In this document: piece after piece, positions 3,991-44,362 of the stretch
Layout of the letters: each line of letters starts with the position of its first letter
Position numbering within the stretch: position 1 is the first letter of the stretch
From: Saprospiraceae bacterium
GTDB taxonomy: Bacteria; Bacteroidota; Bacteroidia; Chitinophagales; Saprospiraceae
Length of the DNA stretch: 64,000 nt
Direction: 5' to 3'
NCBI GenBank assembly: GCA_031373665.1
Contig: JANMMZ010000085.1
Coordinates: 1,389 to 65,388 of the forward strand
Notes under the pieces: generated by a model
Told to the model about the DNA's origin: nothing
The model's database searches: none
Seen by the model: only the letters and a program-made list of their open reading frames with translations
Program-made: the position numbers and the translations under genes

Positions 3991-6504
3991 TTAAACCAAC
4001 CCAAATTTCCCCGATTGCTTCACTTTTTCCACGATTTCATGTACTGTTGGTAACACTTCGGGCGGGATCCGGAGCAAAAGGTTATCCTCTGTTTTATTGG
4101 TGAGGATCAAGGTCGCGTAATAGATCAATTCATAGCGACTTTTGAGCATCTTACCATGCGCGGCAGATTCAAACAATGATAACACAAGGTGCTTTTGTTC
4201 CAAACAGAGTAGATCAGTGAAGAACGCTTCAAGGTATTCACCTGCACTGATTTCAAGGACATGCGCTATTTTTTCGGGCAAACCATCCATTATGCCGTTC
4301 CAAATTTCGACGAGTACTACATGTTGATATCTACTCTTATCGCCAGATTGGGCATAATATGCCCGGATATACTCTAAGGCTTGGGGGGCTTGTTGATTGG
4401 TTGAGTAATACAAAATGGCCAAATTATTTAAGGCATTTACATGACCTTTTTCAATAGATTTTAAATACCAGGATTCTGATTCTGTGTTTTTGCCTTGTTC
4501 TCTATACAAGTTTGCCAAATTATACAGGGCATTTATATCGCCTTTTTCAATAGATTTTAAATACCAGGATTCTGATTCTGCGTTTTTGCCTTGTTCGCTA
4601 TACAAGTTTGCCAAATTATTCAAGGCATCTACATGACCTTTTTCAATGGCTTGTAAATAATAGGACTCCGATTCCGCGTTTTTGCCTTGTTCGCGGTACA
4701 AATTTGCCAAATTATACAAGGCATCCACATGACCTTTTTCAATGGCTTGTAAATAATAGGATTCCGATTCCGCTTTTTTGCCTTGATCGCGGTACAAGTT
4801 TGCCAAATTATACAAGGCATTCACATGACCTTTTTCAATGGCTTGTAAATAATAGGATTCCGATTCCGCTTTTTTGCCTTGATCGCGGTACAAAATGGCC
4901 AAATTATTCAAGGCATCTACATTGCCTTTTTTAATGGCTTGTAGATAATGGGATTCCGCTTCCTTATACTTTTTTAATTCATGGTAACAATACGCCTGTA
5001 AAAAGAACTTCACCCCGTCGGCTTCATTTTCGATTTCATCTATTTTTTTTAAGGCCGCTTCGTAGCGATTTTCATCCCAGAGTTGATCTATTTCTGCTTT
5101 GATTTCACTGTATTTTCTCGGCAGTTCGCTATCCAGTCCCATTTCTTGCTGGAGTGCTAAGGTCTTATCAATCAGTGCATCGCGCTCCTGAGTACTGATG
5201 TATTTTGATTGAGACAACCCTTTACTCAACACAAAAGCCTTGTCGTAGCGCAATTGCCCTGATCCCAAAGCGGTTAGGTGCTGGGTTGTTAGGTCTTTGA
5301 GTTCGGTCGCATCGTACCAAGATTCCAAAAAATGGGTTAGGTATTTAGCCCGTCTCTTTTGATCGGGATTGCCTTGGGTAACAATCAGCCACATATTGAA
5401 AAATCGCTCCGAGATTCGGTACAAATGATTTTTTTTGCCTGTCGCAATGGTTTCTACGATCCCATATTGCTCCAATTGTCGGAGGTAAGAAGCGATGAGT
5501 TTGCTTTCCATTCGGCATTTTTCTACCAATACCTTAGTAGGAGCGGCCTCCCACCAAAAAGCCATTTCTTGGACGATTTTGCGCTGGGCAGCCGTCAGGG
5601 TGTTGAGCCGCTCTTGGTAAAGCGGCGAGGCGTTGTCCATCACTTTGCGCAGGTAGTCGAAGCCGAACTGCTTGGCATCGTGGAGGAGGAGTTGGATAAA
5701 AACCTGAAGGGCGCGGGGGAGTCCGTCAGTCAGGATACGGATGGCCTCTATCCGCCCCCGATACTGTAGGGCGTAATCGTGTAACACAGGCAAGTCCATC
5801 TCCGCACTCCAATGATTGAGCAGTCGGTGTATCTCTTCAAATTGTAATCCTTCTAAGCGGTGTCGCCTGAAAAACTCGTAAAAAGGCTTATCATACTGCC
5901 AAAAATGTTCGTCCATGCGGGTGCTACCACCGATGATTTGTAGGTCGTTGTAGTTGAGCAGGGTTTCGCGCAGCAAGTTTCCGTCGTCGTCGAAGTTTTC
6001 GAGGATGCGATCCAAGTTGTCCAACAGTAACACAACCCTTTTGCCAGAACCTTGCAGCAATTGGTGTATCTCGGCATAGAGGTAGCGGGTATAAGCCGAA
6101 TTGTCTTCAAAATCGTCAAAGTCGCGTAGTTTGGGGGCTTTGCCAAACCGCAATTGGAGTTCATGCAATACTTCAAACCACAAATCGGAGAGCCGATAAA
6201 TAGATGCCTGTTCCTCGGCTAAATTGATGGCGATATAACGACTGGCGAGGTCAGTATCTTCGTCAATCTCGATTTGGATGCGGCGGAGGAGGGTTGATTT
6301 TCCGCTGCCGCGTCGCCCCAATATCAACTCATGCTGTACGGGATCGGCGGGCTTTTTGCGCCGCAATTCCGCCGTGATGAGTTCAAATTCAGCGATTCGG
6401 ATTAAAAAGTTGCGTTTAATAACCTCTGGGCTGCTATTGGCCGACTGGTATAGGCTGAGCCTGTCCAGAAAAGAGGTAGGGCCGCTTAGCGCATGGTTGC
6501 TCAT
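3991..6504 (-). CDS. STAND-like P-loop NTPase with a winged-helix-like segment and C-terminal Sel1/TPR-like repeats
   Basis: Walker A LGRRGSGKSTLL and Walker B VVLLLDNLDR. The C-terminal half has six 32-aa repeats, YYLQAIEKGHV(D/N)ALYNLANLYR(D/E)QGK(K/N)AESES. Start moved from 6708 to the ATG at 6504 (MSNHALSGP...). The longer ORF would overlap the upstream gene, whose stop is at 6524-6526. Confidence 0.8.
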   Translation of the reverse strand: MSNHALSGPTSFLDRLSLYQSANSSPEVIKRNFLIRIAEFELITAELRRKKPADPVQHELILGRRGSGKSTLLRRIQIEIDEDTDLASRYIAINLAEEQASIYRLSDLWFEVLHELQLRFGKAPKLRDFDDFEDNSAYTRYLYAEIHQLLQGSGKRVVLLLDNLDRILENFDDDGNLLRETLLNYNDLQIIGGSTRMDEHFWQYDKPFYEFFRRHRLEGLQFEEIHRLLNHWSAEMDLPVLHDYALQYRGRIEAIRILTDGLPRALQVFIQLLLHDAKQFGFDYLRKVMDNASPLYQERLNTLTAAQRKIVQEMAFWWEAAPTKVLVEKCRMESKLIASYLRQLEQYGIVETIATGKKNHLYRISERFFNMWLIVTQGNPDQKRRAKYLTHFLESWYDATELKDLTTQHLTALGSGQLRYDKAFVLSKGLSQSKYISTQERDALIDKTLALQQEMGLDSELPRKYSEIKAEIDQLWDENRYEAALKKIDEIENEADGVKFFLQAYCYHELKKYKEAESHYLQAIKKGNVDALNNLAILYRDQGKKAESESYYLQAIEKGHVNALYNLANLYRDQGKKAESESYYLQAIEKGHVDALYNLANLYREQGKNAESESYYLQAIEKGHVDALNNLANLYSEQGKNAESESWYLKSIEKGDINALYNLANLYREQGKNTESESWYLKSIEKGHVNALNNLAILYYSTNQQAPQALEYIRAYYAQSGDKSRYQHVVLVEIWNGIMDGLPEKIAHVLEISAGEYLEAFFTDLLCLEQKHLVLSLFESAAHGKMLKSRYELIYYATLILTNKTEDNLLLRIPPEVLPTVHEIVEKVKQSGKFGLV
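4375..4950 (-). repeat. Six tandem 96-nt (32-codon) near-identical coding repeats of Sel1/TPR-like type
   Basis: Unit phase read directly: HY at 4950-4945 and the next YY at 4854-4849, so the period is 96 nt. Units are nearly identical at nucleotide level. The antisense track ORFs 4608..4934 and 4629..4820 are periodic shadows of this array. Confidence 0.9.
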
Positions 6505-6523
6505 ATTTGTCTGATGTGGGTAT

Positions 6524-7711
6524 TTATGCTTCATATACTGGGTTGTCGCGCTTCCAAAATGCTTGTAAAAAAGGAGAAATAAATACAAATCGGCCGCCCA
6601 AGTCAGTGATGTAACCGTCCTGTTCGAGGCCGCCCACCAATTCCATATATGTGTCTTTTTTGTTGTGCTTGATGGCCAAATCGTACAATTGTCGCGGGTT
6701 GATCTCATTTCGATGAGCGATATACACCAGTGTTTCCATCAAAAATGCGACATCCTCCTTGGTAAAATAGTCAGAGAGGCGGTTTTTCCATTCCTTGAAA
6801 TGGTCGCTGTTTTTGACCACCTTCTCAAAGGCATCATCAATATGTTGTGGCGTAATGACGATATTGTTTGCTTTTCGCGCAGCCCGGTTGATCTCATCCA
6901 ACATCAGGTTGAGAAAATAAGGAATGAAATAGTTGATCTTAGAAAGCAAGTGTTGGGTAAGAGGATCATCGTATTGAACACTAGCACTTTGGGTGGCCCA
7001 GTTGACATAATCGGCCGCTTCGCTAGGTGTCAATGCCTCGAAGGGTACGATCCCAAAGTCATTGATATCGGAAGTGCGCCCTTCTATAGTCTTCACGATG
7101 TGGTGAATGCCGACCGAACCTGCCAATACCAAACTAAAATGTTGTCGGATTTCTGGGTTTTGTCGCCACTCGCGCAGGCGATCCAAAATGCCGCTCGCTT
7201 CATTTTGTTTGCCTTTTTTATATAGATTGTTCAATATTTCGGGCAATTCATCCAAAAGCAGCACGACCTTTACCTTGTTTTGACCAATTTTGGGCAGAAT
7301 CTTATTGATTTCTTCCACGTAATTGATGGGCTTCTTTTCGCCAAATTTTACGCCCTCCAAGGTGATTTCTTCCACAGTAAGGTGTTTGAGGAGGTCGCCG
7401 AGCCAGTTTTTACCTTTTTCAAACTTGCTCAAACATTGTACGATCAGTTCAAAAAACTCTTTGTAAAACTCCGCTTCTGATTGTACGCCTTGTATATTTT
7501 TGAAAATACAACGGGTGTCCTGCGGGCAGTTTTTTTGCATGGCCAGCATGACCGATGATTTGCCCACCCTACGCGGGGCGGCCAAAAGCACATGATTGCC
7601 CTTCTGGGTTTCGGCCCATATTTGCGCCTCTATATCTGGGCGTGGGAAGTAATAATCTCCGATGGCGGTGTTTCCGATGATGATTTTCGGGTCTTTCCAA
7701 GTGGTGCTCAT
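6524..7711 (-). CDS. P-loop ATPase (archaeal-ATPase/AAA-like) with a C-terminal winged-helix-like region
   Basis: Walker A LLAAPRRVGKSSVM and Walker B VVLLLDELPE. Start placed at the ATG at 7711 (MSTTWKDPKIIIGN); the 17-codon upstream extension is unsupported. The gene ends 19 nt before the start of the next NTPase gene. Confidence 0.75.
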   Translation of the reverse strand: MSTTWKDPKIIIGNTAIGDYYFPRPDIEAQIWAETQKGNHVLLAAPRRVGKSSVMLAMQKNCPQDTRCIFKNIQGVQSEAEFYKEFFELIVQCLSKFEKGKNWLGDLLKHLTVEEITLEGVKFGEKKPINYVEEINKILPKIGQNKVKVVLLLDELPEILNNLYKKGKQNEASGILDRLREWRQNPEIRQHFSLVLAGSVGIHHIVKTIEGRTSDINDFGIVPFEALTPSEAADYVNWATQSASVQYDDPLTQHLLSKINYFIPYFLNLMLDEINRAARKANNIVITPQHIDDAFEKVVKNSDHFKEWKNRLSDYFTKEDVAFLMETLVYIAHRNEINPRQLYDLAIKHNKKDTYMELVGGLEQDGYITDLGGRFVFISPFLQAFWKRDNPVYEA

Positions 7712-33566: not shown

Positions 33567-34646
33567 ATGGCGAAGTCAAATATTGAAAATGACGATATCA
33601 CTATCCTCAAACAGAAGGTTGATTTTTTAGAAAAGCGTCTAAGTAGTTATGAAGATATTAATAAAACACTATCAACGCAAGTTTTAGGAAAATGGAATGT
33701 AATTGGGCATACGACCAAATTTTTACAATGGGCAGCCGGAATCGTATTCGCTGTTACATTTGGACTATATTGGTTGGTTTATGATAATTTAAGAGATTTT
33801 AAAGAAGAATCAAATCAAAATAAGATAGAAATTACAAAATTGTCAAAACTTTCAAGTTCACTAATTTCTGTTACATCAGATTTACATACAATGAACCTTG
33901 ATTACAATCGTAAACAGTATGAAAGGGTTTTAGACAAAGCAAAAAAGTCTCTTGAAAAGATTGAAGAGGCAAAAAATAATTTATTTTTAAATAATTATGA
34001 CGAACTTAAAATGACATTACTATCTTTTAGGGGAGTAGCTTACTATCAAAAATACCTAGATGATAAAAAAAATAGCTACCCGAATAAAAACGACTTGATC
34101 AATATGATTTCAATTGGGGATACCATGGTAGCACTTAACCCGAATCATTGGAAGGGTTATCAAATTCGTGGGTTTGGCAACTGGGAGAACTCCTCTATAA
34201 ACGGAAGAATATCTAATGATAATGATTACAATAAAATAAAAAGTGATTTGGATAGGTCGGTACAACTAGGAGAAGAATTTAATACAAATACTATAAATTT
34301 AATCGAATTGTCATTTGTAAACTTTCGTTTTGATGAATCTAAATATTATATTACTATCTTTGAAGATAACTTTGGCAATAAGTTTCAAAGATATCGAGAT
34401 AAAAATGGTCAAGTCGCTTATTTATTTTATAAACACATGACTAACTACATTTTATCCAAAGACAAAAATGAACTTAAGGAATTAGATAAGAGCATTGCTG
34501 CTTTGAAAAATAAAGGAGTTCAAAATTTCGATAACACGAATTTAGAAGCATGGTTCATTAATGCCGAAGATAATCCCAATTTACTTCGAGGGATTAATCC
34601 AAATTTACTAAAAACCTGGCGCAAAAAAATATTTAAAACCCCCTAA
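33567..34646 (+). CDS. Hypothetical membrane-anchored protein with an N-terminal coiled-coil segment, one TM helix and a helical repeat-like body
   Basis: 359-aa ORF with AT-rich codon usage like the neighbouring R-M genes. One hydrophobic helix, FLQWAAGIVFAVTFGLYWLVY. I recognise no family. Confidence 0.6.
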   Translation: MAKSNIENDDITILKQKVDFLEKRLSSYEDINKTLSTQVLGKWNVIGHTTKFLQWAAGIVFAVTFGLYWLVYDNLRDFKEESNQNKIEITKLSKLSSSLISVTSDLHTMNLDYNRKQYERVLDKAKKSLEKIEEAKNNLFLNNYDELKMTLLSFRGVAYYQKYLDDKKNSYPNKNDLINMISIGDTMVALNPNHWKGYQIRGFGNWENSSINGRISNDNDYNKIKSDLDRSVQLGEEFNTNTINLIELSFVNFRFDESKYYITIFEDNFGNKFQRYRDKNGQVAYLFYKHMTNYILSKDKNELKELDKSIAALKNKGVQNFDNTNLEAWFINAEDNPNLLRGINPNLLKTWRKKIFKTP

Positions 34647-34997
34647 ACATCTAACAATGCACTGTCTAAAATGTCCGACTAAGCGCGTCCACGTAGCCAG
34701 TGCCCCCGTTAGTTAGCACCAACCATAGGGGCAGCCAAGCATAGTTCCAGATAATAATATTGATTTTCACCAGTTTTTAAGAATAGCGGACAGGCTGAGC
34801 GGAGACAGTAAAGCTTGTGCCCGCAGGCCCCCGCTCCAATTTTGGCAGGTAACCCGGCGCGGCATTGAATATAATATTGACTTACAAGTGGTACACTTTT
34901 CGTGATTAGTGGCAAAATGGAAAACTGTACCTCAACTTTTGACAATAACCAAATTATAAATTGTACCTTAGCAGCCTAAAAAATAAAGACATTCAGC

Positions 34998-36659
34998 ATG
35001 AGTGAAGATTATAAAAGGGGGTTGGAATCGCAACTTTGGAACATTGCCAATACGCTACGTGGCAAAATGAATGCAGACGAATTTCGTGACTACATTTTGG
35101 GTTTCATTTTCTATAAATACCTAAGCGAGAAAATGAACATTTTCGCTGACGAAATCTTGAAACAAGACAATATCAAGTTTCAAGAAATAACACCAAAGAC
35201 TACAGACGGGGCAGCATTTATTGAAGCCATAAAAGAAGAAGCCTTGGAAAAATTGGGCTACTTTCTAAGACCTGAAGAACTGTTTACAGAAGTTGCCAAA
35301 CGAGGAAATTTAATTACGAATGACGAATTAGAAGTGACGAATGAAAAAGAAGACTCAAAAAAAGTAATTCGTAATTCTCAATTCGTAATTAATGAAACCA
35401 ATTTCATTTTAGAAGATTTACAAAAAATCCTGATCAATATCCAGTTGAGTACCATGGGTACTGAAAGCGAAGAAGATTATGAGAATCTCTTTGAGGATAT
35501 GGATTTGAATAGTTCAAAATTAGGCAAAACTCCAGAGGCAAGAAATGCAATCATTGCAAAAGTGCTAACGCACCTTGACAAAATTGATTTCATGTTAGTT
35601 GATCAACATGGCCGTGCTCATCAACATGAAAATGATGTTTTGGGCGATGCTTACGAATATTTGATTGGACAATTTGCCAGTGGTGCAGGAAAAAAAGCAG
35701 GTGAATTTTATACACCGCAACAAGTCTCTACAATTTTGGCAAAAATAGTAACCACAGGAAAACAAAAACTAAAATCAGTTTATGACCCTACTTGTGGTTC
35801 GGGTTCTTTGTTGCTTCGTGTGGCAAGGGAGGTAGAAGATGTAAGTAATTTTTACGGACAAGAAATGAACCGTACTACTTACAACCTTGCCCGCATGAAT
35901 ATGATTTTGCACGGGGTGCATTACCGCCAATTTGATATTAAACAGGACGATACACTCGAACACCCACAGCATATTGACCAACAATTTGAAGCCATTGTAG
36001 CCAATCCACCATTTTCGGCTCAATGGAGTGCCAACCCATTGTTTACCAGTGACGACCGTTTTAGCCAATACGGACGACTTGCACCCAGTAGTAAAGCCGA
36101 CTTTGCTTTTGTGCAACACATGATTTACCATTTGGCAGACAATGGCACGATGGCCATTGTTTTGCCGCACGGTGCTTTGTTTAGAGGTGGTGCAGAGCAA
36201 CACATTCGAACGTATTTGATAGAAAACAAAAACTTTTTAGATGCCGTCATTGGCTTGCCAGCCAATATATTTTATGGTACCAGTATTCCAACGTGTATTT
36301 TGGTTTTCAAAAAGTGTAGAGAAAACCCTGATGACATTTTGTTCATAGATGCCAGCCAGCATTTTGAGAAAGTGAAAACCCAAAATGTTTTAAGGCCCAA
36401 AGACATTGATTTAATTATTGACACGTACCGTAAGAGAACGGAATTGCCAAAGTACAGCAAGAAAGCAACATTAGAGGAAATTGCTAAAAACGATTACAAC
36501 CTGAATATACCAAGGTATGTAGATACCTTTGAGGCAGAAGAAAATATAGACATTGAAGCCATCGCCACAGCACTCAAAGCATTGGATGAATCAATGGCGG
36601 ATACTGACAAAACCATTGCACAGTTTTGTAAGGAATTGGGTATTTCAACACCTTTTTAA
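34998..36659 (+). CDS. hsdM: Type I restriction-modification system, DNA methyltransferase subunit M
   Basis: 553 aa. AdoMet motif I VYDPTCGSGSLLL and catalytic motif IV IVANPPFSAQW. N-terminal HsdM_N-like LWNIANTLRGKMNADEFRDYILGFIFYKYLSE. Confidence 0.95.
   Translation: MSEDYKRGLESQLWNIANTLRGKMNADEFRDYILGFIFYKYLSEKMNIFADEILKQDNIKFQEITPKTTDGAAFIEAIKEEALEKLGYFLRPEELFTEVAKRGNLITNDELEVTNEKEDSKKVIRNSQFVINETNFILEDLQKILINIQLSTMGTESEEDYENLFEDMDLNSSKLGKTPEARNAIIAKVLTHLDKIDFMLVDQHGRAHQHENDVLGDAYEYLIGQFASGAGKKAGEFYTPQQVSTILAKIVTTGKQKLKSVYDPTCGSGSLLLRVAREVEDVSNFYGQEMNRTTYNLARMNMILHGVHYRQFDIKQDDTLEHPQHIDQQFEAIVANPPFSAQWSANPLFTSDDRFSQYGRLAPSSKADFAFVQHMIYHLADNGTMAIVLPHGALFRGGAEQHIRTYLIENKNFLDAVIGLPANIFYGTSIPTCILVFKKCRENPDDILFIDASQHFEKVKTQNVLRPKDIDLIIDTYRKRTELPKYSKKATLEEIAKNDYNLNIPRYVDTFEAEENIDIEAIATALKALDESMADTDKTIAQFCKELGISTPF
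35312..35392. mobile_element. 81-nt palindromic AATTACGAAT-family element embedded in frame in hsdM
   Basis: taattacgaat (35312-35322) and attcgtaatta (35382-35392) are exact reverse complements. Internal gacgaat/attcgta repeats are present. 81 nt is 27 codons, translated as ITNDELEVTNEKEDSKKVIRNSQFVIN. Confidence 0.8.
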
Positions 36660-36660
36660 T

Positions 36661-37255
36661 TGTCTGAATCACAGATTTAATGGATTTAATGATTTCACGG
36701 AATATGAACACAGCATTAAAATACAAGGACATAACCGAAAAAATATTAGGTGCTTCGTTTGAAGTGCATAAATTTTTAGGCAACGGCTTTCAAGAAGTCA
36801 TTTATCAGAGAGCATTGGCTTGGGAAATGAAGCAGAAAGGATTAGAATTTGCCAGAGAAATAGAACAAGATATTTTTTATAAGGATTTGCCAGAACCTAT
36901 TGGTACAAGAAGAGCAGATTTTGTAGTAGAGGGAAAAATTTTGGTGGAGTTAAAAGCCGTTATTCAATTAGAAGACGTGCATTTAGCACAAGCTTTGAAC
37001 TACCTCAAAGCCTATAAATTAGAAGTTGGTTTATTAATAAATTTTGGGAGCAAATCGCTCACTTTTAAACGTATTGTACTATGATAAAACAAAATAGTCA
37101 GCATCACGGATTGAAAAATAGTCAGCATCACGGATTAAAAAATAGTCAGAATCACGGATTAAACGGATTAAAGGATGACACTGATTTAAAATCGGAAAAT
37201 AATCAAAAAAAATCCGTGAAATCTGTGCAATCCTTTAAAATCCGTGATTCAGACA
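36661..37255. mobile_element. Composite of a GxxExxY ORF bracketed by TGTCTGAATCAC(G/A)GATT-family repeats
   Basis: The left end tgtctgaatcacagattt begins at 36661, 2 nt after the hsdM stop. The right side has three 24-nt tandem repeats (agtcag(c/a)atcacggatt at 37096, 37120 and 37144). It then carries a full element body ending aatccgtgattcagaca at 37239-37255, the reverse complement of the left end. Confidence 0.7.
36680..37084 (+). CDS. GxxExxY family protein (PD-(D/E)XK nuclease-like fold)
   Basis: Contains the GFQEVIY (G-x-x-E-x-x-Y) motif. Family-typical ILGASFEVHKFLG and ADFVVEGKILVELKAV (D...ExK-like) segments, and C-terminal LINFG. An alternative start is the ATG at 36704 (MNTALKYKD). 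The stop TGA overlaps the hsdS ATG as ATGA at 37081-37084. Confidence 0.85.
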   Translation: MDLMISRNMNTALKYKDITEKILGASFEVHKFLGNGFQEVIYQRALAWEMKQKGLEFAREIEQDIFYKDLPEPIGTRRADFVVEGKILVELKAVIQLEDVHLAQALNYLKAYKLEVGLLINFGSKSLTFKRIVL

Positions 37256-38532
37256 ACATTCCAGTATTGCGTTTTCCTGAGTTTAATGAGGAATGGAAAG
37301 AAAAGAAGTTGGGGGAAGTAGCGACCAATAAGTCAGGTAAATATAATCCTGAAAAAGAACGAGAATCTGTGAAATGTATTGAATTAGAACATTTATCTTC
37401 GGATTCAAGCCAATTACTGGGATATATTGATGGAAAAAATTCAGGAAGTATTAAGAATAAATTTGATAAAGGCGATGTGCTTTTTGGAAAATTAAGACCT
37501 TATCTAAAAAAGTATTTACTAGCACCTTTTGAAGGAGTTTGTTCGTCAGAAATTTGGGTATTGAAAGGGCTGAATATTTCAAATGACTTTTTATTTAGGA
37601 TAGTGCAAACAGATTCATTTATTGATTTAGCAAATCAATCAAGTGGCTCTAAAATGCCAAGAGCAGATTGGAATGTTGTTGAAAATGGAATATTCTCTTT
37701 CCCCACCCTACCCGAACAAACCAAAATCGCCACCTTCCTCACCGCAGTAGATGAAAAAATCCAAGCCCTCAAAAAGAAAAAAGGCCTTTTAGAAGATTAC
37801 AAAAAAGGGGTGATGCAAAAACTCTTCTGTCTGAATCACGGATTAGATGGATTTAAAGATGACACAGATTTTGACAATGAATCCGTGGAATCTGCGCAAT
37901 CCTTAAAAATCCGTGATTCAGACAATGTACGCTTCAGACAAAAAGATGGCAGCAACTTTCCAGATTGGGAAGTGAAGAAGTTGGGGGAGGTGGCAAAAAG
38001 GAAAACATTGAAAAATAAAGAAGGGAATACAAATGTTCTTACAATTTCTGCACAATATGGATTGATAAGCCAATTAGAATTTTTCAATAAATCTGTTTCT
38101 GCGAAAGATGTAACAGGGTATTATTTATTAGAAAATGGAGATTTTGCATACAATAAAAGTTATTCAAATGGTTATCCAATGGGTGCAATTAAGTGTTTAA
38201 ATAGATATGGAAAAGGTGTAGTTTCAACATTGTATATCTGTTTTAAATTTAATGAAGTGATAAATAATTCATTTATGGAGCATTTTTTTGAAACAGGTAT
38301 TCATAATAGTGAAATTGAAAAAGTAGCACAGGAAGGAGCAAGAAATCATGGTTTGTTGAATATTGGATTAGAAGATTTTTTCAATATTGCAATATCAATC
38401 CCCTGCCTCAAAGAACAAACCGCCATCGCCAATTTCCTATCCGCCCTAGACGAAAAAATAAACCATACGCAAACCCAAATAACCCAAACCGAAACGTGGA
38501 AAAAGGGGCTTTTACAAAAAATGTTTTGTTAA
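37081..38532 (+). CDS. hsdS: Type I restriction-modification system, specificity subunit S
   Basis: Two target-recognition domains. Each is preceded by (L)RFPEF..W..KKLGEV or FPDWEVKKLGEV and followed by the conserved helices LPEQTKIATFLTAVDEKIQALKKK and LKEQTAIANFLSALDEKINHTQ. The first ~60 codons and codons ~250-282 are translations of the repeat element. Confidence 0.9.
   Translation: MIKQNSQHHGLKNSQHHGLKNSQNHGLNGLKDDTDLKSENNQKKSVKSVQSFKIRDSDNIPVLRFPEFNEEWKEKKLGEVATNKSGKYNPEKERESVKCIELEHLSSDSSQLLGYIDGKNSGSIKNKFDKGDVLFGKLRPYLKKYLLAPFEGVCSSEIWVLKGLNISNDFLFRIVQTDSFIDLANQSSGSKMPRADWNVVENGIFSFPTLPEQTKIATFLTAVDEKIQALKKKKGLLEDYKKGVMQKLFCLNHGLDGFKDDTDFDNESVESAQSLKIRDSDNVRFRQKDGSNFPDWEVKKLGEVAKRKTLKNKEGNTNVLTISAQYGLISQLEFFNKSVSAKDVTGYYLLENGDFAYNKSYSNGYPMGAIKCLNRYGKGVVSTLYICFKFNEVINNSFMEHFFETGIHNSEIEKVAQEGARNHGLLNIGLEDFFNIAISIPCLKEQTAIANFLSALDEKINHTQTQITQTETWKKGLLQKMFC
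37828..37924. mobile_element. 97-nt solo MITE-like copy of the TGTCTGAATCACGGATT-family element, in frame inside hsdS
   Basis: tgtctgaatcacggatt (37828-37844) and aatccgtgattcagaca (37908-37924) are exact reverse complements. The body aligns with 37144-37255. It is translated as CLNHGLDGFKDDTDFDNESVESAQSLKIRDSDN, at the junction between the central conserved helix and TRD2. Confidence 0.85.
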
Positions 38533-38544
38533 AATTAATTACAA

Positions 38545-39336
38545 ATGAAGAATTACAAATTACAAATAATACCCACTGATTTGCTCCCTGTTTATTTGGA
38601 GCAAGTGCCTAAGGGTTTGCAGAAAGCATTTGATGCCTTGAAGGACGCAGAGATTTCTACTGATACTTTTAGTTTTTACACTTCGGTATCAGCTATGGCA
38701 TCGAGCAAAATTGAGGGCGAACAAATGGAAATTGACAGCTACATCAAACACAAAATGTTGAATATTGAGTATCTGGAAGACTTGGTTGAAAAACCAAACG
38801 ATTTGTATAATGCTTATCTGTTTGCCCAAAAAAATGAACTCACCGAAAAAAATTTTTTAGAAACCCATAAATTATTGTCAGCACATCTTTTAGCCCCCAA
38901 TAAAAGAGGCGTTTGCAGAACAGGCAATATGGTGGTAATGGAGCATAAAACATTCCGCATACAATATGAAGCTGCCTTGGGGAGCGAAGTAAAACCCTTG
39001 TTTGCCAGACTTTGGAAAGATATTGAGCAACTAAAAAAAGAAAGATTAAGCATAGAAGAAACATTCTTTTTTGCATCATTCATTCATATTGTTTTTGTAA
39101 ATATTCACCCTTTTGAAGATGGAAACGGAAGAGCAGGAAGATTATTAGAAAAATGGTTTTTGGCTCAAATGCTGGGCGAAAAAGTTTGGTATATACAAAG
39201 TGAATTGAATTATTATAAAAACGTAAACAACTATTACAAAAATCTGAACAGGCTCGGAATTTTTTACGAAAAATTGGATTACAACCAAGCTATTCCATTT
39301 CTATTAATGCTACCAAGTTCAATTACGAATATTTAA
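38545..39336 (+). CDS. Fic family protein (AMPylase-type fold)
   Basis: Fic motif HPFEDGNGRAGR, matching HxFx(D/E)GNGRxxR. An upstream SSKIEG matches the [S/T]xxxE[G/N] inhibitory-helix motif. The last codons (SSITNI*) are encoded by the first AATTACGAAT repeat. Confidence 0.9.
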   Translation: MKNYKLQIIPTDLLPVYLEQVPKGLQKAFDALKDAEISTDTFSFYTSVSAMASSKIEGEQMEIDSYIKHKMLNIEYLEDLVEKPNDLYNAYLFAQKNELTEKNFLETHKLLSAHLLAPNKRGVCRTGNMVVMEHKTFRIQYEAALGSEVKPLFARLWKDIEQLKKERLSIEETFFFASFIHIVFVNIHPFEDGNGRAGRLLEKWFLAQMLGEKVWYIQSELNYYKNVNNYYKNLNRLGIFYEKLDYNQAIPFLLMLPSSITNI

Positions 39337-39372
39337 TTACGAATGTTTAATTACGAATATTTAATTACGAAT
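39321..39372. repeat. Four AATTACGAAT repeats with a 14-nt period, upstream of the four-helix-bundle ORF
   Basis: aattacgaat occurs at 39321, 39335, 39349 and 39363. Confidence 0.9.
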
Positions 39373-39379
39373 CACAAAA

Positions 39380-39805
39380 ATGAAAACTGACAATATTATA
39401 CAACAAAAAAATTATGCTTTTGCAGTGAGAATTGTAAAAGTGTATCAATATTTATGTGACGAGAAAAAAGAGTTTACTTTAAGCAAACAGCTTTTAAGAT
39501 GCGGCACATCGGTTGGTGCAAATGTTGAAGAAGCCATTGGTGGGCAAAGTGAAAAGGATTTTTTTGCCAAACTAACCATTTCATACAAAGAAGCAAGGGA
39601 AACACATTATTGGATACGGTTATTGACAGACACTGGTTATTTAACAAAAGAGCAAAGCGAAAGTCTGTTGAATGACATAACAGAAATTCAAAAAATAATT
39701 GGAAGTATTCAACGCACAATCAAATCTCGTAATTCAAAATTAATTACGAATGACGAATTCAAAATTACGAATGACGAATTTAAAATTACGAATGAAAAAT
39801 CATAA
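39380..39805 (+). CDS. Four-helix-bundle protein (family formerly called 23S rRNA intervening-sequence protein)
   Basis: Family-typical AFAVRIVKVYQYL..., LSKQLLRCGTSVGANVEEAIGGQSEKDFFAKLTISYKEARETHYWIRLL. The C-terminal LITNDEFKITNDEFKITNEKS is encoded by AATTACGAATGACGAATT repeats. Confidence 0.85.
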   Translation: MKTDNIIQQKNYAFAVRIVKVYQYLCDEKKEFTLSKQLLRCGTSVGANVEEAIGGQSEKDFFAKLTISYKEARETHYWIRLLTDTGYLTKEQSESLLNDITEIQKIIGSIQRTIKSRNSKLITNDEFKITNDEFKITNEKS

Positions 39806-39923
39806 TAAAAATATAAAAACTATAACTCAATTAAAATACAAAATCGTAATTCGTAATTCACAATTCGTAATTAAAAATTCGTAATTCGTAATTAAAAATT
39901 CGTAATTAAAAATTCGTAATTAA
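39727..39923. mobile_element. Palindromic AATTACGAAT / ATTCGTAATT repeat block between the four-helix-bundle ORF and hsdR
   Basis: aattacga at 39743, 39763 and 39784 forms the left arm, with a ~20-nt period. Seven tcgtaatt copies lie between 39844 and 39921 and form the right arm, in inverse orientation. The last repeat abuts the hsdR ATG at 39924. Confidence 0.8.
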
Positions 39924-42869
39924 ATGAGCAGACAGTCGGAACAAATATTAGAAGAACAACTCATTGCCCAGTTGCAAAAATTGGGGTACGGCTATATTGT
40001 CATCAATAGTGAAAAAGATGTATTGCTCAACCTCAAAGGGCAATTGGAAAAACACAACCAATCCGCCCTAACTAAAACAGGCAATGCACAATTTACCCAA
40101 ACAGAGTTTGAGAAGATTTTAAACCTGTTGAGCAAAGGGTCTGTTTTTGAAAAATCAAAAATGCTTCGCCAAAAGCAACACCTTGTTCGGGAGCATGGAG
40201 ACAACCTGTATTTTGAATTTTTGAATACGGAGCATTGGTGTCAAAATGAATATCAAGTAACCAACCAAGTAAGCCAGGAAGGAAAATTCAAAAACCGTTA
40301 TGATGTAACCATTCTCATCAACGGTTTGCCATTGGTGCAAATAGAACTGAAGCGCAGAGGCTTAGAATTGAAAGAAGCGTTCAATCAAATCAACCGTTAT
40401 CAACGGCATTCGTTTGGTGCAAACGCTGCTTTGTTTCAGTATGTTCAAATCTTCATTATCAGCAATGGCGTAAATACAAAGTACTACGCCAACAACCGCA
40501 ACCAAAGTTTCAAACAAACTTTCTATTGGACAGATGCAGCAAACAAAAGGGTTTCTAATATACTAAATGGCTTTACGGATACATTTTTAGAGCCTTGCCA
40601 CTTGAGCAAAATGATATGCAAGTACATTGTGCTGAACGAAGCCTATAAAATTCCAATGGTACTTCGTCCGTATCAGTTCTATGCTGTGGAAGCTTTAATA
40701 GAAAGAGTAAAGTCACAAGGCCTTACGAGTCAACCCAAAAACGGTTATATATGGCATACCACAGGTTCGGGTAAAACCCTCACAAGTTTTAAAGCCAGTC
40801 AGATTTTAATGGCTTTGCCACAAGTTCATAAAGTGGTTTTTGTGGTGGATAGAAAAGATTTGGATTACCAAACGACTAAAGAATTCAACAGTTTTCAAGA
40901 AGGTTGTATTGACGGAACAGACAATACGCAAAACTTAGTAAAGCAATTTACAGGCACTTATGTTGACAAAAAAGGAGAGGCCAAAAATTCCAAACTCATA
41001 GTAACCACCATTCAAAAACTCAATACTGCAATCAGCAAATTGAAGTATGAGGCTAAAATGGCTGAACTGAAAGACAAACGCATCATTTTTATTTTTGACG
41101 AGTGCCACAGAAGCCAATTTGGCGATACTCACAAAAGAATAAAGGACTTTTTCAATAATGCTCAATTGTTTGGGTTTACAGGCACTCCCATTTTTGCAGA
41201 CAATGCTGCTAAAAACGAACACGGCAAGCGAACCACCAAAGATTTATTTGAAGACTGTTTGCATAAGTATGTAATTACAGATGCTATCAAAGACGAAAAT
41301 GTATTGAAGTTTTCGGTTGAATATGTAGGCAGATATAAGCATAAAGACGGACGAGAGACCAATATTGATATTGAGGTAGAAGACATTGACACTAAAGAGT
41401 TGATGGAAGATGAAACCCGTTTAGAAAAAATAACAGATTACATTATTGCACACCACAACCGCAAAACACACAGCCGAGCGTTTACGGCTATGTTTTGTAT
41501 CAATAATGTGCCTACGCTTATCAAATACGTTGATTTATTCAAAAAGAAAAAAGCCGAAGGATTACACAATTTGAACATTGCAACCATATTCAGTTATGGG
41601 GCAAATGAAGATGATGCAGATGCCAACGGCTTTATCAACTTTGAACAAGATTTTGACAATGTTGATTTGAATCTAGTGGCAGAATCAAAGCCCGAATATA
41701 AAATCAATTCGCATAGCAGAGACAAGTTAGAAGAATTTATAGGTGATTACAACAAACTATTTGGTGATAATTTCACGACCAAAGACAGCCAAAGTTTTTA
41801 CAACTATTACAACGACATTTCAAAGAAAGTCAAGGAACGCAAAATTGACATTTTAATAGTGGTAAATATGTTCCTTACGGGTTTTGACAGCCCAACATTG
41901 AACACCATGTATGTGGACAAAAACCTACGATATCACGGACTAATACAAGCATATAGCCGAACCAACAGAATTTTAAACGAGCAAAAAAGCCAAGGAAATA
42001 TTGTTGCGTTTCGCAACCTCAAAAACCGCACAGACGAAGCGATTACTTTATTTAGCAACAAAGAAGCGATTGAAGTAATCATCATGAAACCGTATGAAGA
42101 CTACACAGCCAAGTTTGACGAAGCCTTTGAACATTTAATTTCTTTGACACCAACTACAGACAGCGTTGATGATTTACAAACAGAAGATGACGAACTTGAA
42201 TTCATAAAGGCTTTCAGAGATTTGATGAGAATAAAAAATGTTCTCACTGCATTTTCAGACTTCAAATGGGAAGACTTGGAAATGACCGAGCAACAATTTG
42301 AAGATTTTAAAAGCAAGTATCTCGACCTTTACGACAAAGTAAAAAGCAACCACCAAAAAGAGAAGGTTTCCATTTTAGAAGATGTGGATTTTGAGTTGGA
42401 ATTAATTCACCGTGACGAAATAAATGTTGCTTATATCATTCAACTTTTAATCAAACTAAAAGCACAAGCTCAAAAAGACACGACAAAAGCAGAACAAGAA
42501 ATATTCAACTTGTTAAGCACCGAAACGACTTTACGTAGCAAACGAGAGTTGATAGAAAAATTTATACAAGAGAATTTGCCAGTAATTGTGGATACAGACG
42601 AAGTTGCACCGGCGTTCGACAAATATTGGAACGAAGAACAGCAAAAGGCATTTTCTAAATTGGTGATTGAAGAAAGCCTTTCACCCGACAAGACAGAAAA
42701 ATTAATTGAAGACTATTTGTTTGCAGAAAGGCCACCATTAAGAGACGAAGTTTTAGAACTCATTGAAGGCGAAAAACCAAGTTTGCTTCAAAGAAAAAAA
42801 CTGGGTGAAAGAATTTTAAAACGTATCATGGACTTTGTAGAAACGTTTATAAACGGAATGGCAGGATAG
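39924..42869 (+). CDS. hsdR: Type I restriction-modification system, endonuclease/translocase subunit R
   Basis: 981 aa. N-terminal nuclease-like region, helicase motif I WHTTGSGKTLTSF, motif II IFIFDECHRSQ, and later motifs TGTPIF and VNMFLTGFDSP. Confidence 0.95.
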   Translation: MSRQSEQILEEQLIAQLQKLGYGYIVINSEKDVLLNLKGQLEKHNQSALTKTGNAQFTQTEFEKILNLLSKGSVFEKSKMLRQKQHLVREHGDNLYFEFLNTEHWCQNEYQVTNQVSQEGKFKNRYDVTILINGLPLVQIELKRRGLELKEAFNQINRYQRHSFGANAALFQYVQIFIISNGVNTKYYANNRNQSFKQTFYWTDAANKRVSNILNGFTDTFLEPCHLSKMICKYIVLNEAYKIPMVLRPYQFYAVEALIERVKSQGLTSQPKNGYIWHTTGSGKTLTSFKASQILMALPQVHKVVFVVDRKDLDYQTTKEFNSFQEGCIDGTDNTQNLVKQFTGTYVDKKGEAKNSKLIVTTIQKLNTAISKLKYEAKMAELKDKRIIFIFDECHRSQFGDTHKRIKDFFNNAQLFGFTGTPIFADNAAKNEHGKRTTKDLFEDCLHKYVITDAIKDENVLKFSVEYVGRYKHKDGRETNIDIEVEDIDTKELMEDETRLEKITDYIIAHHNRKTHSRAFTAMFCINNVPTLIKYVDLFKKKKAEGLHNLNIATIFSYGANEDDADANGFINFEQDFDNVDLNLVAESKPEYKINSHSRDKLEEFIGDYNKLFGDNFTTKDSQSFYNYYNDISKKVKERKIDILIVVNMFLTGFDSPTLNTMYVDKNLRYHGLIQAYSRTNRILNEQKSQGNIVAFRNLKNRTDEAITLFSNKEAIEVIIMKPYEDYTAKFDEAFEHLISLTPTTDSVDDLQTEDDELEFIKAFRDLMRIKNVLTAFSDFKWEDLEMTEQQFEDFKSKYLDLYDKVKSNHQKEKVSILEDVDFELELIHRDEINVAYIIQLLIKLKAQAQKDTTKAEQEIFNLLSTETTLRSKRELIEKFIQENLPVIVDTDEVAPAFDKYWNEEQQKAFSKLVIEESLSPDKTEKLIEDYLFAERPPLRDEVLELIEGEKPSLLQRKKLGERILKRIMDFVETFINGMAG

Positions 42870-43228
42870 CCCATGCTTTTGGTGGCACATTTGCAAAGCC
42901 GCACGACCTGTCCCGCTGCTGCGGGAATGAACTAGGCAAATAGATAAATCGCTCAACTTTGCACAGATGTCCATCCCTCCTAAACGTCGGTACGGGCAGA
43001 GAGGCAACCAATATATCTTACTAAGTTCTACCCAATCTGCAAGCAGCCCAATTTGTAAATAGGGTTTTGTTTCAGGTTGCGCCACCACCTATTAATTTTG
43101 AGCAGGCTTCGCCCATCACTGTATCAGTTATCAAATTAAATCGGATGTTTTTTCAATGAACTAATTATTTTTTTCAAGGCTTTTCAAGGAAACATAGCCA
43201 AAACTAACATTAAAATTTTAAAATTAAC

Positions 43229-44362
43229 ATGGACAACAAACCTGAGATAATTCAAACAATCATTGAAAATATTTTTTTCGCTATACGTGATACATTAAAC
43301 AAAATAATACTTTTTATCTTGTTGACAATCATTAGTTCTTGCAACGCGCAAGAAAAAACAAACACATTTAATCCCCCCAATATTTCCAAATCAAGTCCAA
43401 CAGTAATAAAAAACTTTAAGTCCATTGCTGTAGCTCCTGATTTTGATACCACCTTAGTCAGTCAATATATCCGAAGTATTTTTCAGGATTCTAAAGGGAA
43501 TTTATGGTTTGGTACGTTAGGCGAAGGCGTAGTGAGATATGATGAAAAAACATTGACCTACTTTTCCAATCCTGATGGTTTTAATAACAACACAGTTTAT
43601 GCCATCAATGAAGATAAAAATGGTAATCTTTGGTTTGGGACTGACCAAGGCGTTTATAAATATGATGGAAAAACTTTTAAAAATTACAATCAAAAAGATG
43701 GACTAAACCATATAGACATAAGTCGAAAAAGCATCCTTGTTGACAAATCAGGTACTATTTGGGTGGGCACACATGGCGGCGTTTACCAATATGACCCGTC
43801 TGCCGATAGCAAAGGCGGTCAAAGTTTTTCATTATTTCAACTACTTCCTTCTATAAATATTGCTGGCATCATGGAAGACAAAAGTGGCAACATTTGGTTT
43901 GCTTCTTCGAATAAAGGTGTCTTTCGCTATGATGGAAAAACAATTACCAATATTGCAGAAAAGGAAGGTTTGGGAGAGAACTATGCAGGAGGAATCGCAG
44001 AGGATAAAGATGGAAATGTGTGGTTTACTATGAAAAACGGCATTTGCAAATATGATGGAAAAACCTTAACAGAATATACCCCCAAAGACGGATTAGGCGG
44101 AACTGAATTTTGGGGAATGATTATAGAACAGTCAGGTATTGTTTGGGTTACAGCCCGAGGCAGTACTACTAGATTTGATCCTTCTATTCCCTTACCAAAT
44201 CCCAAAGCATTTACGGTGTTTACAGTAAAAGATGGTCTTAATTGCTGTGTTCAAAGTATGTATCAAGATAAGTCAGGAAATATGTGGTGGGGTGCAGGAT
44301 CAGGTCTTTTCCGGTTTGATGGAACGCGCTTTTATCAAGTTAAACAGAATGGCCCTTGGTAG
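43229..44362 (+). CDS. Two-component-regulator-propeller (Reg_prop) repeat protein, probably a lipoprotein
   Basis: At least six repeats of the form GN(L/I/V)WFGT..GV..YDGKT(F/L/I)(T/K)(N/Y). N-terminal hydrophobic segment ending IISSC, lipobox-like. Confidence 0.8.
   Translation: MDNKPEIIQTIIENIFFAIRDTLNKIILFILLTIISSCNAQEKTNTFNPPNISKSSPTVIKNFKSIAVAPDFDTTLVSQYIRSIFQDSKGNLWFGTLGEGVVRYDEKTLTYFSNPDGFNNNTVYAINEDKNGNLWFGTDQGVYKYDGKTFKNYNQKDGLNHIDISRKSILVDKSGTIWVGTHGGVYQYDPSADSKGGQSFSLFQLLPSINIAGIMEDKSGNIWFASSNKGVFRYDGKTITNIAEKEGLGENYAGGIAEDKDGNVWFTMKNGICKYDGKTLTEYTPKDGLGGTEFWGMIIEQSGIVWVTARGSTTRFDPSIPLPNPKAFTVFTVKDGLNCCVQSMYQDKSGNMWWGAGSGLFRFDGTRFYQVKQNGPW

Follow-up and report, generated by a model that had tools for sequence, protein, structure and literature searches.

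Inverted repeat arrays bracket a four-helix-bundle gene at operon junctions: a probable promoterless cassette with likeness to rRNA intervening sequences

We have analyzed a 64,000-nt stretch of a Saprospiraceae bacterium contig (JANMMZ010000085.1, positions 1,389 to 65,388; the whole stretch is called the window below) in which a gene for a four-helix-bundle protein lies between a Fic gene and hsdR of a type I restriction-modification (R-M) operon. This gene probably belongs to a widespread promoterless cassette, in which a 118-codon gene of the PF05635/TIGR02436 family is bracketed by inverted arrays of a short repeat unit and which fills the stop-to-start gaps of co-directional operons. At the level of sequence, our comparisons establish that the architecture is conserved and that the cassette has been gained and lost at operon junctions, as well as variable unit number, relatives that lack the open reading frame (ORF), purifying selection on the protein and conservation of the unit itself. 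No description of the gene-plus-arms composite was found in the literature searched by family names, motifs and repeat sequence.

Background

To our knowledge, no role has been known for the PF05635 family since 1993, outside the Avd proteins of diversity-generating retroelements (DGRs). Its genes are usually annotated singly as 'four helix bundle protein', or are read as accessories of the operon that hosts them (cas, R-M). The original prediction for this DNA stated that the family was first described in stem-bounded intervening sequences (IVSs) of 23S rRNA, which is correct (PMC4990558). In Coxiella, the IVS is closed by a terminal stem of 28 bp, carries an S23p ORF with heptameric repeats upstream of it, and is excised by RNase III (PMC4990558). 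Genes annotated as 23S_rRNA_IVP have also been found wedged between cmr3 and cmr2 and read as CRISPR-Cas-associated (PMC3936711), a placement for which the cassette reading is the simpler explanation.

Results

Architecture of the window copy

Four repeats on the left, the ORF, repeats forming its C-terminal codons, an A-rich spacer and seven repeats in inverse orientation had been predicted for this locus, and all of these were found in place:

39318..39378, + strand: left arm, four AATTACGAAT units at 39321, 39335, 39349 and 39363 (period 14 nt, 94% matches)
39380-39805, + strand: four-helix-bundle ORF, 141 aa (PF05635/TIGR02436)
39727..39739, + strand: first right-arm unit, TCGTAATTCA, then AAA at 39737-39739
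39742..39793, + strand: 5' arm of a nested ORF-less hairpin, three forward AATTACGAATGACGAATT-type units (period 21 nt, 96%)
39794..39843, + strand: A-rich loop of the nested hairpin, holding the ORF stop codon (39803-39805)
39844..39921, + strand: right array, seven TCGTAATT units on the opposite strand

The left arm encodes the last Fic codons (..ITNI), contains the Fic stop codon TAA (39334-39336) and ends 1 nt 5' of the cassette ATG. At the other end, the right array stops 2 nt short of the hsdR ATG (39924), where the junction reads TAA-ATG. Proximal units of the right array pair with the nested 5' arm and distal units with the left arm. The outer arms (39331-39378 and 39878-39925; 48 nt) have 92% complementarity, so that terminal inverted repeats (TIRs) enclose the insert in the manner of an IVS or TIR element, and for the 52 nt of the inner arms (39740-39791 and 39844-39895) the value is 81%. 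Folded as RNA, the segment 39300-39935 has a predicted energy of -141.7 kcal/mol, against -94.1 for shuffled sequences (z -8.35), and consists of an outer stem of ~44 bp with an inner hairpin; the nested hairpin alone folds at -42.5 kcal/mol (z -6.6). No terminator was found in the window copy, and promoter-like sites were without clear excess in a scan that did not cover Bacteroidota-type promoters. Rfam searches of the region 34500-43500 and of 14 related loci returned no rRNA, the sole match in the region being to a miRNA model at E 0.87, which is noise.

The window copy departs from its relatives at the end of the ORF. The usual stop codon TAA, which the closest relatives have, is AAA at 39737-39739. 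Relatives such as L087 read ..TCGTAATTCATAA TTAAT AATTCGTAATT (AATTCGT.. in L087), and the window copy, aligned to this, reads ..TCGTAATTCAAAA TTAAT TACGAATG.. / TACGAATGACG.. Judged from the alignment, the window copy has lost its stop codon and gained a repeat-encoded tail of 23 aa (residues 119-141), with the three 21-nt AATTACGAATGACGAATT-type repeats translated as ..LITNDEFKITNDEFKITNEKS. A second, ORF-less hairpin (three forward units, loop, reverse units) is nested in the right array after TTAAT, and this explains both the tail and the 'complete palindromic element' of the original prediction.

Matches to AATTACGAAT number 17 in the window against 0.27 expected, a count reached in 0 of 100 shuffles, and 16 of the 17 fall within the R-M operon; the repeat is therefore not general AT-rich sequence.

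Inverted arrays around homologues in several phyla

The original prediction proposed a survey of the flanks of family members, which was carried out on 80 loci, one genome per species, from Flavobacterium, Sphingobacterium, Marinifilaceae, Bacteroidales, Chlorobiota, Planctomycetota, Verrucomicrobiota, Lentisphaeria, Thiotrichaceae, Nitrospirota and Caldithrix, that is, Bacteroidota and at least six other phyla. Units of the form ATTA-NN-AAT within 150 nt upstream, together with reverse-complement units downstream, were present at 79 of the 80 loci, and at 71 there were at least two units on each side. Unit density was 25/kb upstream and 21/kb downstream versus 0.5/kb in the remainder of the loci, or about 45 times denser. 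Orientation was equally marked, with 305 forward and 40 reverse units upstream and 44 forward and 292 reverse units downstream.

The canonical element can be written TAATTACGAATTnnnAATTACGAATT-ATG ... ATT CGT AAT TCG TAA-TTnAAAATTCGTAATTA-ATG(next gene). Its right arm supplies the last codons of the ORF (..IRNS) and the cassette stop codon, while the left arm often supplies the stop codon of the upstream gene. The conserved unit is AATTACGAATT in the left array and AATTCGTAATT in the right. Variants of the two arms covary: CG/CG was found at 48 loci, GG/CC at three, CT/AG at two, and AG/CT, TG/CA and AA/TT at one each. GG/CC arms, AATTAGGAATT with AATTCCTAATT, belong to a Rubritalea (Verrucomicrobiota), a Pirellulaceae and one metagenome-assembled genome of Bacteroidota, and the CT/AG variant to Thiotrichaceae. 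Unit number differs between near-identical contigs.

The original prediction named ordinary AT-rich low-complexity sequence as a finding that would refute it; a microsatellite generated by slippage and unlinked to the ORF is a related alternative. The region has ~30% G+C and unit number varies as in a microsatellite. Against this stand the excess and clustering of matches in the window, the forward-upstream and reverse-downstream orientation at 79 of 80 unrelated loci, and the recurrence of the same unit across phyla with covarying variants, so that this explanation is refuted.

A distant PF05635 paralogue (L081 12405-12800, - strand; also in L082) lies between malate synthase and isocitrate lyase. 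Its arms differ from those above and are again inverted, ATTAGCA upstream and TGCTAAT downstream, which hints, in this sequence comparison resting on the one extra example of L081, that arms are subfamily-specific. Extra paralogues were almost absent from the fetched loci, in which the 94 family matches were essentially only the targeted genes. In L089, L091, L094 and L098 (~4390-5620), an IS256-family transposase gene (Transposase_mut) starts ~30 nt past the cassette stop; L098, the one inspected, is without the right repeat array, and sister contigs without the IS256-family insertion retain it.

Operon junctions with and without the cassette

The upstream gene is co-directional with the cassette at 73 of 75 loci and the downstream gene at 62 of 74. 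Between the stop codon of the upstream gene and the ATG of the cassette lie a median of 42 nt, and the commonest gaps, 23-27 nt, equal the length of a two-unit arm. Gaps this short leave no room for a promoter, so the cassette would ride on the transcript of its host operon.

Most surveyed copies lie in housekeeping operons and not in R-M operons. Contexts include thyA-folA (Marinifilum), the position after glnB, those before dnaE and before flgG, and the space between malate synthase and isocitrate lyase. One conserved cassette junction recurs across many Flavobacterium species, and in the closest relatives of the window copy the cassette follows an HD-arginase pair. Some R-M junctions do hold the cassette (L020, L022, L051 and L052). 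The original prediction had seen in this family and in the GxxExxY family a common strategy inside R-M operons; the shared layout stands as an architecture, but the restriction to R-M operons does not.

These contexts also bear on whether the gene is an anti-phage or regulatory component specific to R-M operons. Its place between a SoFic-like Fic gene and hsdR, in an operon that also carries a GxxExxY nuclease, would suit such a role, as would the four R-M loci just named and the report of the family inside cas operons (PMC3936711). However, most loci are in housekeeping operons, PADLOC gave no match for the four-helix-bundle protein, and HsdR orthologues of 93-94% identity function in operons without the cassette. 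We consider a dedicated defense role very unlikely.

In those orthologous operons, the hsdS-hsdR slot is occupied by Abi_2, by Abi_C, by RAYT-like Y1_Tnp genes with arrays of repetitive extragenic palindromes (REPs), or by unknown genes, and in none by the pair of Fic and four-helix-bundle genes; the hsdR ATG abuts the preceding TAA there, as in the window. The slot is a cargo hot spot (L081, L083, L084, L170-L174) in which small unknown ORFs are also present. Long REP arrays beside the RAYT-like genes get translated as ORFs by gene callers.

Gain and loss can be followed at the thyA-folA junction. Labilibaculum has an 11-nt gap and one Ancylomarina a 45-nt gap, both free of repeats. The junction of Ancylomarina sp. 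DW003 holds an ORF-less hairpin of 80 nt, with ATTATGA and TCATAAT units, that of Marinifilum sp. RC60d5 a single solo AATTCGTAATT unit in a gap of 33 nt, and those of five Marinifilum species the full cassette. At the filled sites, TAATTACGAATT begins with the TAA that stops thyA, and the last unit runs directly up to the folA ATG. The states of this junction, the cassette-free orthologous R-M operons and the survey of flanks all bear out the prediction that the four-helix-bundle gene is carried as cargo by an element with inverted repeats at its ends.

The upstream neighbor of the window copy was examined in 67 metagenome Fic loci. The Fic C-terminus is conserved to ..PFLLMLP and variable beyond it. 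Past this point the end of Fic has been overwritten, in different relatives, by the left arm of a four-helix-bundle cassette (..SSITNI-stop) or of a GxxExxY cassette (..CLNLDFKD-stop). Seven of the 67 Fic homologues (L104, L109, L111, L139, L158, L160 and L163) adjoin one or other cassette or a remnant, and in L104 and L111 the Fic C-terminus comes from the GxxExxY left arm. L104 also carries an hsdS-Fic junction, which reads TAA-ATG; compared with it, the window junction (38533-38567) has 12 extra nt, AATTAATTACAA, possibly what is left of an arm. The degenerate repeats of AATTACA that overlap the start of Fic (38537-38567) were considered as a leftover left arm and mostly rejected, as MNYKLQIIP is the native Fic N-terminus in unrelated contexts.

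The four-helix-bundle protein and its conservation

The 141-aa ORF matches PF05635 (23S_rRNA_IVP; E 1.1e-29, 103.2 bits with a cut-off of 33.8) and TIGR02436 ('four helix bundle protein'; E 3e-32, 111 bits with a cut-off of 24); by profile score, the protein is a member of PF05635/TIGR02436. The conserved domain comprises residues 1-118 (39380-39733). The closest solved relative is PDB 2RLD (E 5.7e-35, residues 3-116), an entry with five chains. Close homologues number in the thousands and are 80-92% identical to the first 118 residues; since they are typically 117-119 aa long, the 23-aa tail is peculiar to the window copy. An exact look-up found no record of the 141-aa sequence.

When the window copy was compared with 65 intact homologues, the proportion of nonsynonymous differences (pN) was 0.05-0.19 versus ~0.7-0.8 for synonymous differences (pS), which are saturated even for the closest copy at 92% amino-acid identity. 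By this measure the protein is under strong purifying selection and is thus functional, unlike the decaying S23p of Coxiella, and the cassette copies are old. The repeat unit has been retained at the nucleotide level where neutral sites are randomized, and these alignments indicate that its sequence and its inverted symmetry are both constrained. The parasitic strategy of the original prediction finds no support in this strong selection on the protein, nor in the closest copies, whose saturated synonymous sites give no hint of a recent move.

The very low dN/dS would also fit a host-beneficial intercistronic module, inherited mostly vertically, in which a hairpin akin to REPs and bacterial interspersed mosaic elements (BIMEs) sets mRNA stability or uncouples cistrons and the protein is a hairpin-binding regulator. 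The fixation of the same junction across many Flavobacterium species and in five Marinifilum species, the lack of any sign of recent transposition, and the transcription and differential expression of a family member in F. psychrophilum (PMC5787105) agree with such a module. Yet the distribution is patchy, with unrelated junctions in different genomes and phyla, and presence varies among close relatives and orthologous R-M operons. Protein identity of 60-80% across phyla suggests horizontal spread, and the insertions overwrite the ends of host genes (the Fic C-terminus) and sit in frame in hsdM. On this balance a mainly vertical host module seems unlikely.

ORF-less hairpins and the GxxExxY composite

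A relative of the cassette that had been overlooked in the original prediction lies within the same operon:

35312..35390, + strand: ORF-less hairpin of the AATTACGAAT family, in frame inside hsdM

Its sequence, AATTACGAATGACGAATT ... GTAATTCGTAATTCTCAATTCGTAATT, yields ITNDELEVTNEKEDSKKVIRNSQFVI in translation. At this place in three orthologous hsdM genes lies an acidic linker of 42 nt (KGENEDDVDKFDEN), for which the hairpin segment of 87 nt is substituted without loss of frame. In being in frame, inside a coding sequence and absent from three orthologues, this copy has the features of an in-frame palindromic element of the kind named for Rickettsia palindromic elements (RPEs). Among the fetched loci, further junctions have ORF-less hairpins of the AATTACGAAT family.

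The original prediction described a GxxExxY composite of the same layout with an unrelated repeat family, and this description holds. The outer arms of the GxxExxY (PDDEXK_3) gene (36660-36678 and 37238-37256) are 19 nt long and 95% complementary, with the repeat TTGTCTGAATCAC(A/G)GATTT, which is unrelated to the repeat of the four-helix-bundle cassette. A nested hairpin downstream of the gene encodes the first ~60 residues of the hsdS ORF. An ORF-less copy of the GxxExxY type, 97 nt long, lies in frame in the middle of hsdS (..CLNHGLDGFKDDTDFDNESVESAQSLKIRDSDN..), with 17-nt arms at 37828-37844 and 37908-37924 that are 100% complementary. Further perfect in-frame palindromes were seen in L084 (~1790-1860 and ~4600-5110), where GACGCCATTAATGGCGTC is repeated in hsdM and GTAGAGACGCGATTAATCGCGTCTCTAC occurs within and upstream of a RAYT-like gene.

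The surrounding operon and window

A profile search of the window ORFs placed the cassette in one type I R-M operon that spans 34998-42869 on the + strand. Its other genes are:

34998-36659, + strand: hsdM
36680-37084, + strand: GxxExxY/PDDEXK_3 gene
37081-38532, + strand: hsdS
38545-39336, + strand: Fic gene, SoFic-like (PADLOC, E 2e-20)
39924-42869, + strand: hsdR

G+C content of the operon is 30-38% versus ~43% for the window (region 34400-43400), and the window HsdR is 85-94% identical to proteins of Flavobacterium, Pedobacter, Saprospiraceae and Ferruginibacter. The operon has the look of a horizontally mobile unit. Elsewhere in the window, a 905-aa STAND/AAA-TPR gene (3991-6708, - strand) contains a 96-nt tandem repeat at 4418-4963, with 5.7 copies that are 90% identical; the units are TPR units, recently duplicated or homogenized. 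On the - strand at 9913-33049 lie ~10 consecutive ORFs of ~800 aa, which look like an unusually long paralogue array; both tested ORFs are FtsX/MacB-type permeases.

Discussion

If the gene and its arms form a promoterless cassette, the cassette would be transcribed by read-through from the host operon. The arms would then pair in the transcript into a long stem (~44 bp in the window copy) enclosing the ORF, the topology of an ORF-bearing 23S rRNA IVS. By analogy with the IVS, this stem of ~44 bp would be a substrate of RNase III, and cleavage would free a small mRNA and split the Fic message from that of hsdR. The protein would probably act on its own repeats, as RNA or as DNA. Spread or replacement of the cassette may proceed by recombination between arrays or through a trans-acting factor, rather than by an encoded transposase.

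Several observations weigh against this reading or limit it. Ranking of the 80 loci used a tblastn score to which the repeat-encoded tail contributes in part, giving a slight bias toward downstream repeats and none that is possible for upstream arrays. A target-site duplication could not be seen when filled and empty thyA-folA sites, which belong to different species or genera, were compared. The comparison with insert-free junctions that the original prediction proposed was obtained at orthologous hsdS-hsdR slots, but an exact empty Fic-hsdR site was not found in the metagenome scan with Fic, as hsdR lies beside Fic in none of the 67 loci. The closest copies are saturated at synonymous sites and show no sign of recent transposition, and the hsdM hairpin is a replacement of the native linker rather than a clean insertion. 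Mismatches in the arms comprise 43 G:U and 55 A:C, which, with no G:U excess, is neutral as a test of an RNA-level stem. As judged from the alignments, it is the unit sequence itself that is conserved and not only complementarity, a pattern that suits a site of protein binding as well as, or better than, a simple stem.

Because the mismatch test is neutral, a DNA-level explanation remains a serious rival. Here the arrays would be protein-binding terminal repeats of a TIR or miniature inverted-repeat transposable element (MITE), moved by an enzyme encoded elsewhere (e.g., of the Y1/RAYT type, as for REPs), with the four-helix-bundle gene as a passenger and the RNA stem incidental. Besides the mismatch counts, this would account for a unit sequence kept across phyla despite synonymous saturation and for ORF-less hairpins of the same family scattered at other sites, and RAYT-like Y1_Tnp genes with REP arrays occupy the orthologous hsdS-hsdR slot. 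However, no transposase adjoins the cassette in the window or in the gene-annotated loci, although an enzyme elsewhere in the genome could serve, and the REPs beside the RAYT genes are unrelated in sequence. The lack of a visible target-site duplication at thyA-folA, in sites of different species or genera, may tell against such an element as well. The four-helix-bundle gene is the sole gene common to the surveyed loci and the only ORF between the arms, and on a gene that is only carried along, purifying selection this strong would not persist in all lineages. Upstream co-orientation of 73 to 2 is also unexpected of a DNA transposon, unless selection for expression of the ORF is added. A DNA-level element is in our view possible, at appreciably lower probability than the promoterless cassette.

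The promoterless cassette most resembles the 23S rRNA IVSs of Leptospira, Coxiella burnetii and Xanthomonas, in which an S23p/PF05635 ORF is likewise enclosed by TIRs forming a long stem. In both, the ORF start is accompanied by short tandem repeats based on heptamers (GACAGAT in Coxiella; PMC4990558), neither has a promoter of its own, with expression tied to the host transcript, and ORF-less hairpin versions exist of each (PMC4990558). In contrast to these IVSs, which lie inside the 23S gene at helix 25 or helix 45, the window cassette lies between Fic and hsdR; cassettes occur between protein-coding genes and not in rRNA, as the Rfam searches of the window region and 14 related loci indicate. 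Their arms are multi-copy arrays of a cross-phylum unit, and their ORF is intact and strongly selected, whereas the Coxiella ORF is decaying and probably untranslated.

REPtrons, reportedly described by Nunvar in 2010 and by Bertels and Rainey in 2011, are RAYT genes flanked by inverted REPs, associated with REP/BIME elements. As in REPtrons, a small gene is flanked by an inverted repeat that is also found as many ORF-less palindromic copies at junctions, and RAYT genes with their REP sets share the hsdS-hsdR slot with the cassette in orthologous operons. Unlike a RAYT, the cassette protein is a four-helix bundle (PF05635) and not a Y1 transposase (PF01797), with no catalytic function known, and the cassette unit is not itself palindromic and is without the REP signature. 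The cassette thus contains no Y1 gene between inverted REPs, and the true RAYT/REP sets of related operons have unrelated repeats. RPEs are said to have been reported by Ogata in 2000 as short palindromes that lie in frame inside protein genes without destroying them. The hsdM hairpin at 35312-35390 and the hsdS copy at 37828-37924 resemble them, whereas RPEs are not known to have an ORF-bearing master copy of the cassette kind and differ in host phyla and sequences. An integron-cassette reading was rejected on anatomical grounds, since the repeats are two-sided, the cassettes single and integrase genes lacking nearby.

The Avd protein of DGRs has a four-helix-bundle fold homologous to that of the cassette protein. 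Avd forms pentamers (bAvd, PDB 4DWL) and binds reverse transcriptase and nucleic acid (PMC10053308). The window protein nevertheless scores below both Avd cut-offs (NF033474, 20.7 bits versus 80; PF22296, 26.1 versus 40), and the neighbors of the cassette are Fic and HsdR, without an adjoining reverse transcriptase or a template/variable repeat pair. Avd identity was rejected on these scores and on the lack of a reverse transcriptase nearby.

Taken by analogy, the cassette would in its working come closest to an IVS that has been transplanted to mRNA operons; its ORF-less relatives are REP-like and its in-frame copies RPE-like. A bolder proposal, which we offer tentatively and consider unlikely, is that a new kind of self-propagating element is made up of the 118-aa four-helix-bundle protein together with the heptamer-based arrays cognate to it. 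The sole protein of this element, a small pentameric nucleic-acid binder and no transposase, nuclease or reverse transcriptase, would recognize AATTACGAATT and promote copying of the cassette into operon junctions or seed ORF-less hairpins, and rRNA IVSs, and possibly the Avd of DGRs, would be specialized offshoots.

Conclusions

If the cassette reading is true, the scattered genomic 'associations' of PF05635 genes would be explained, and rRNA IVSs would be tied to a much larger class of elements. It would also account for the tails that repeats encode, and for the peptides inserted in frame, in Fic, HsdM, HsdS and the cassette protein. For annotators, it would mean that the ends of neighboring genes can come from the element.

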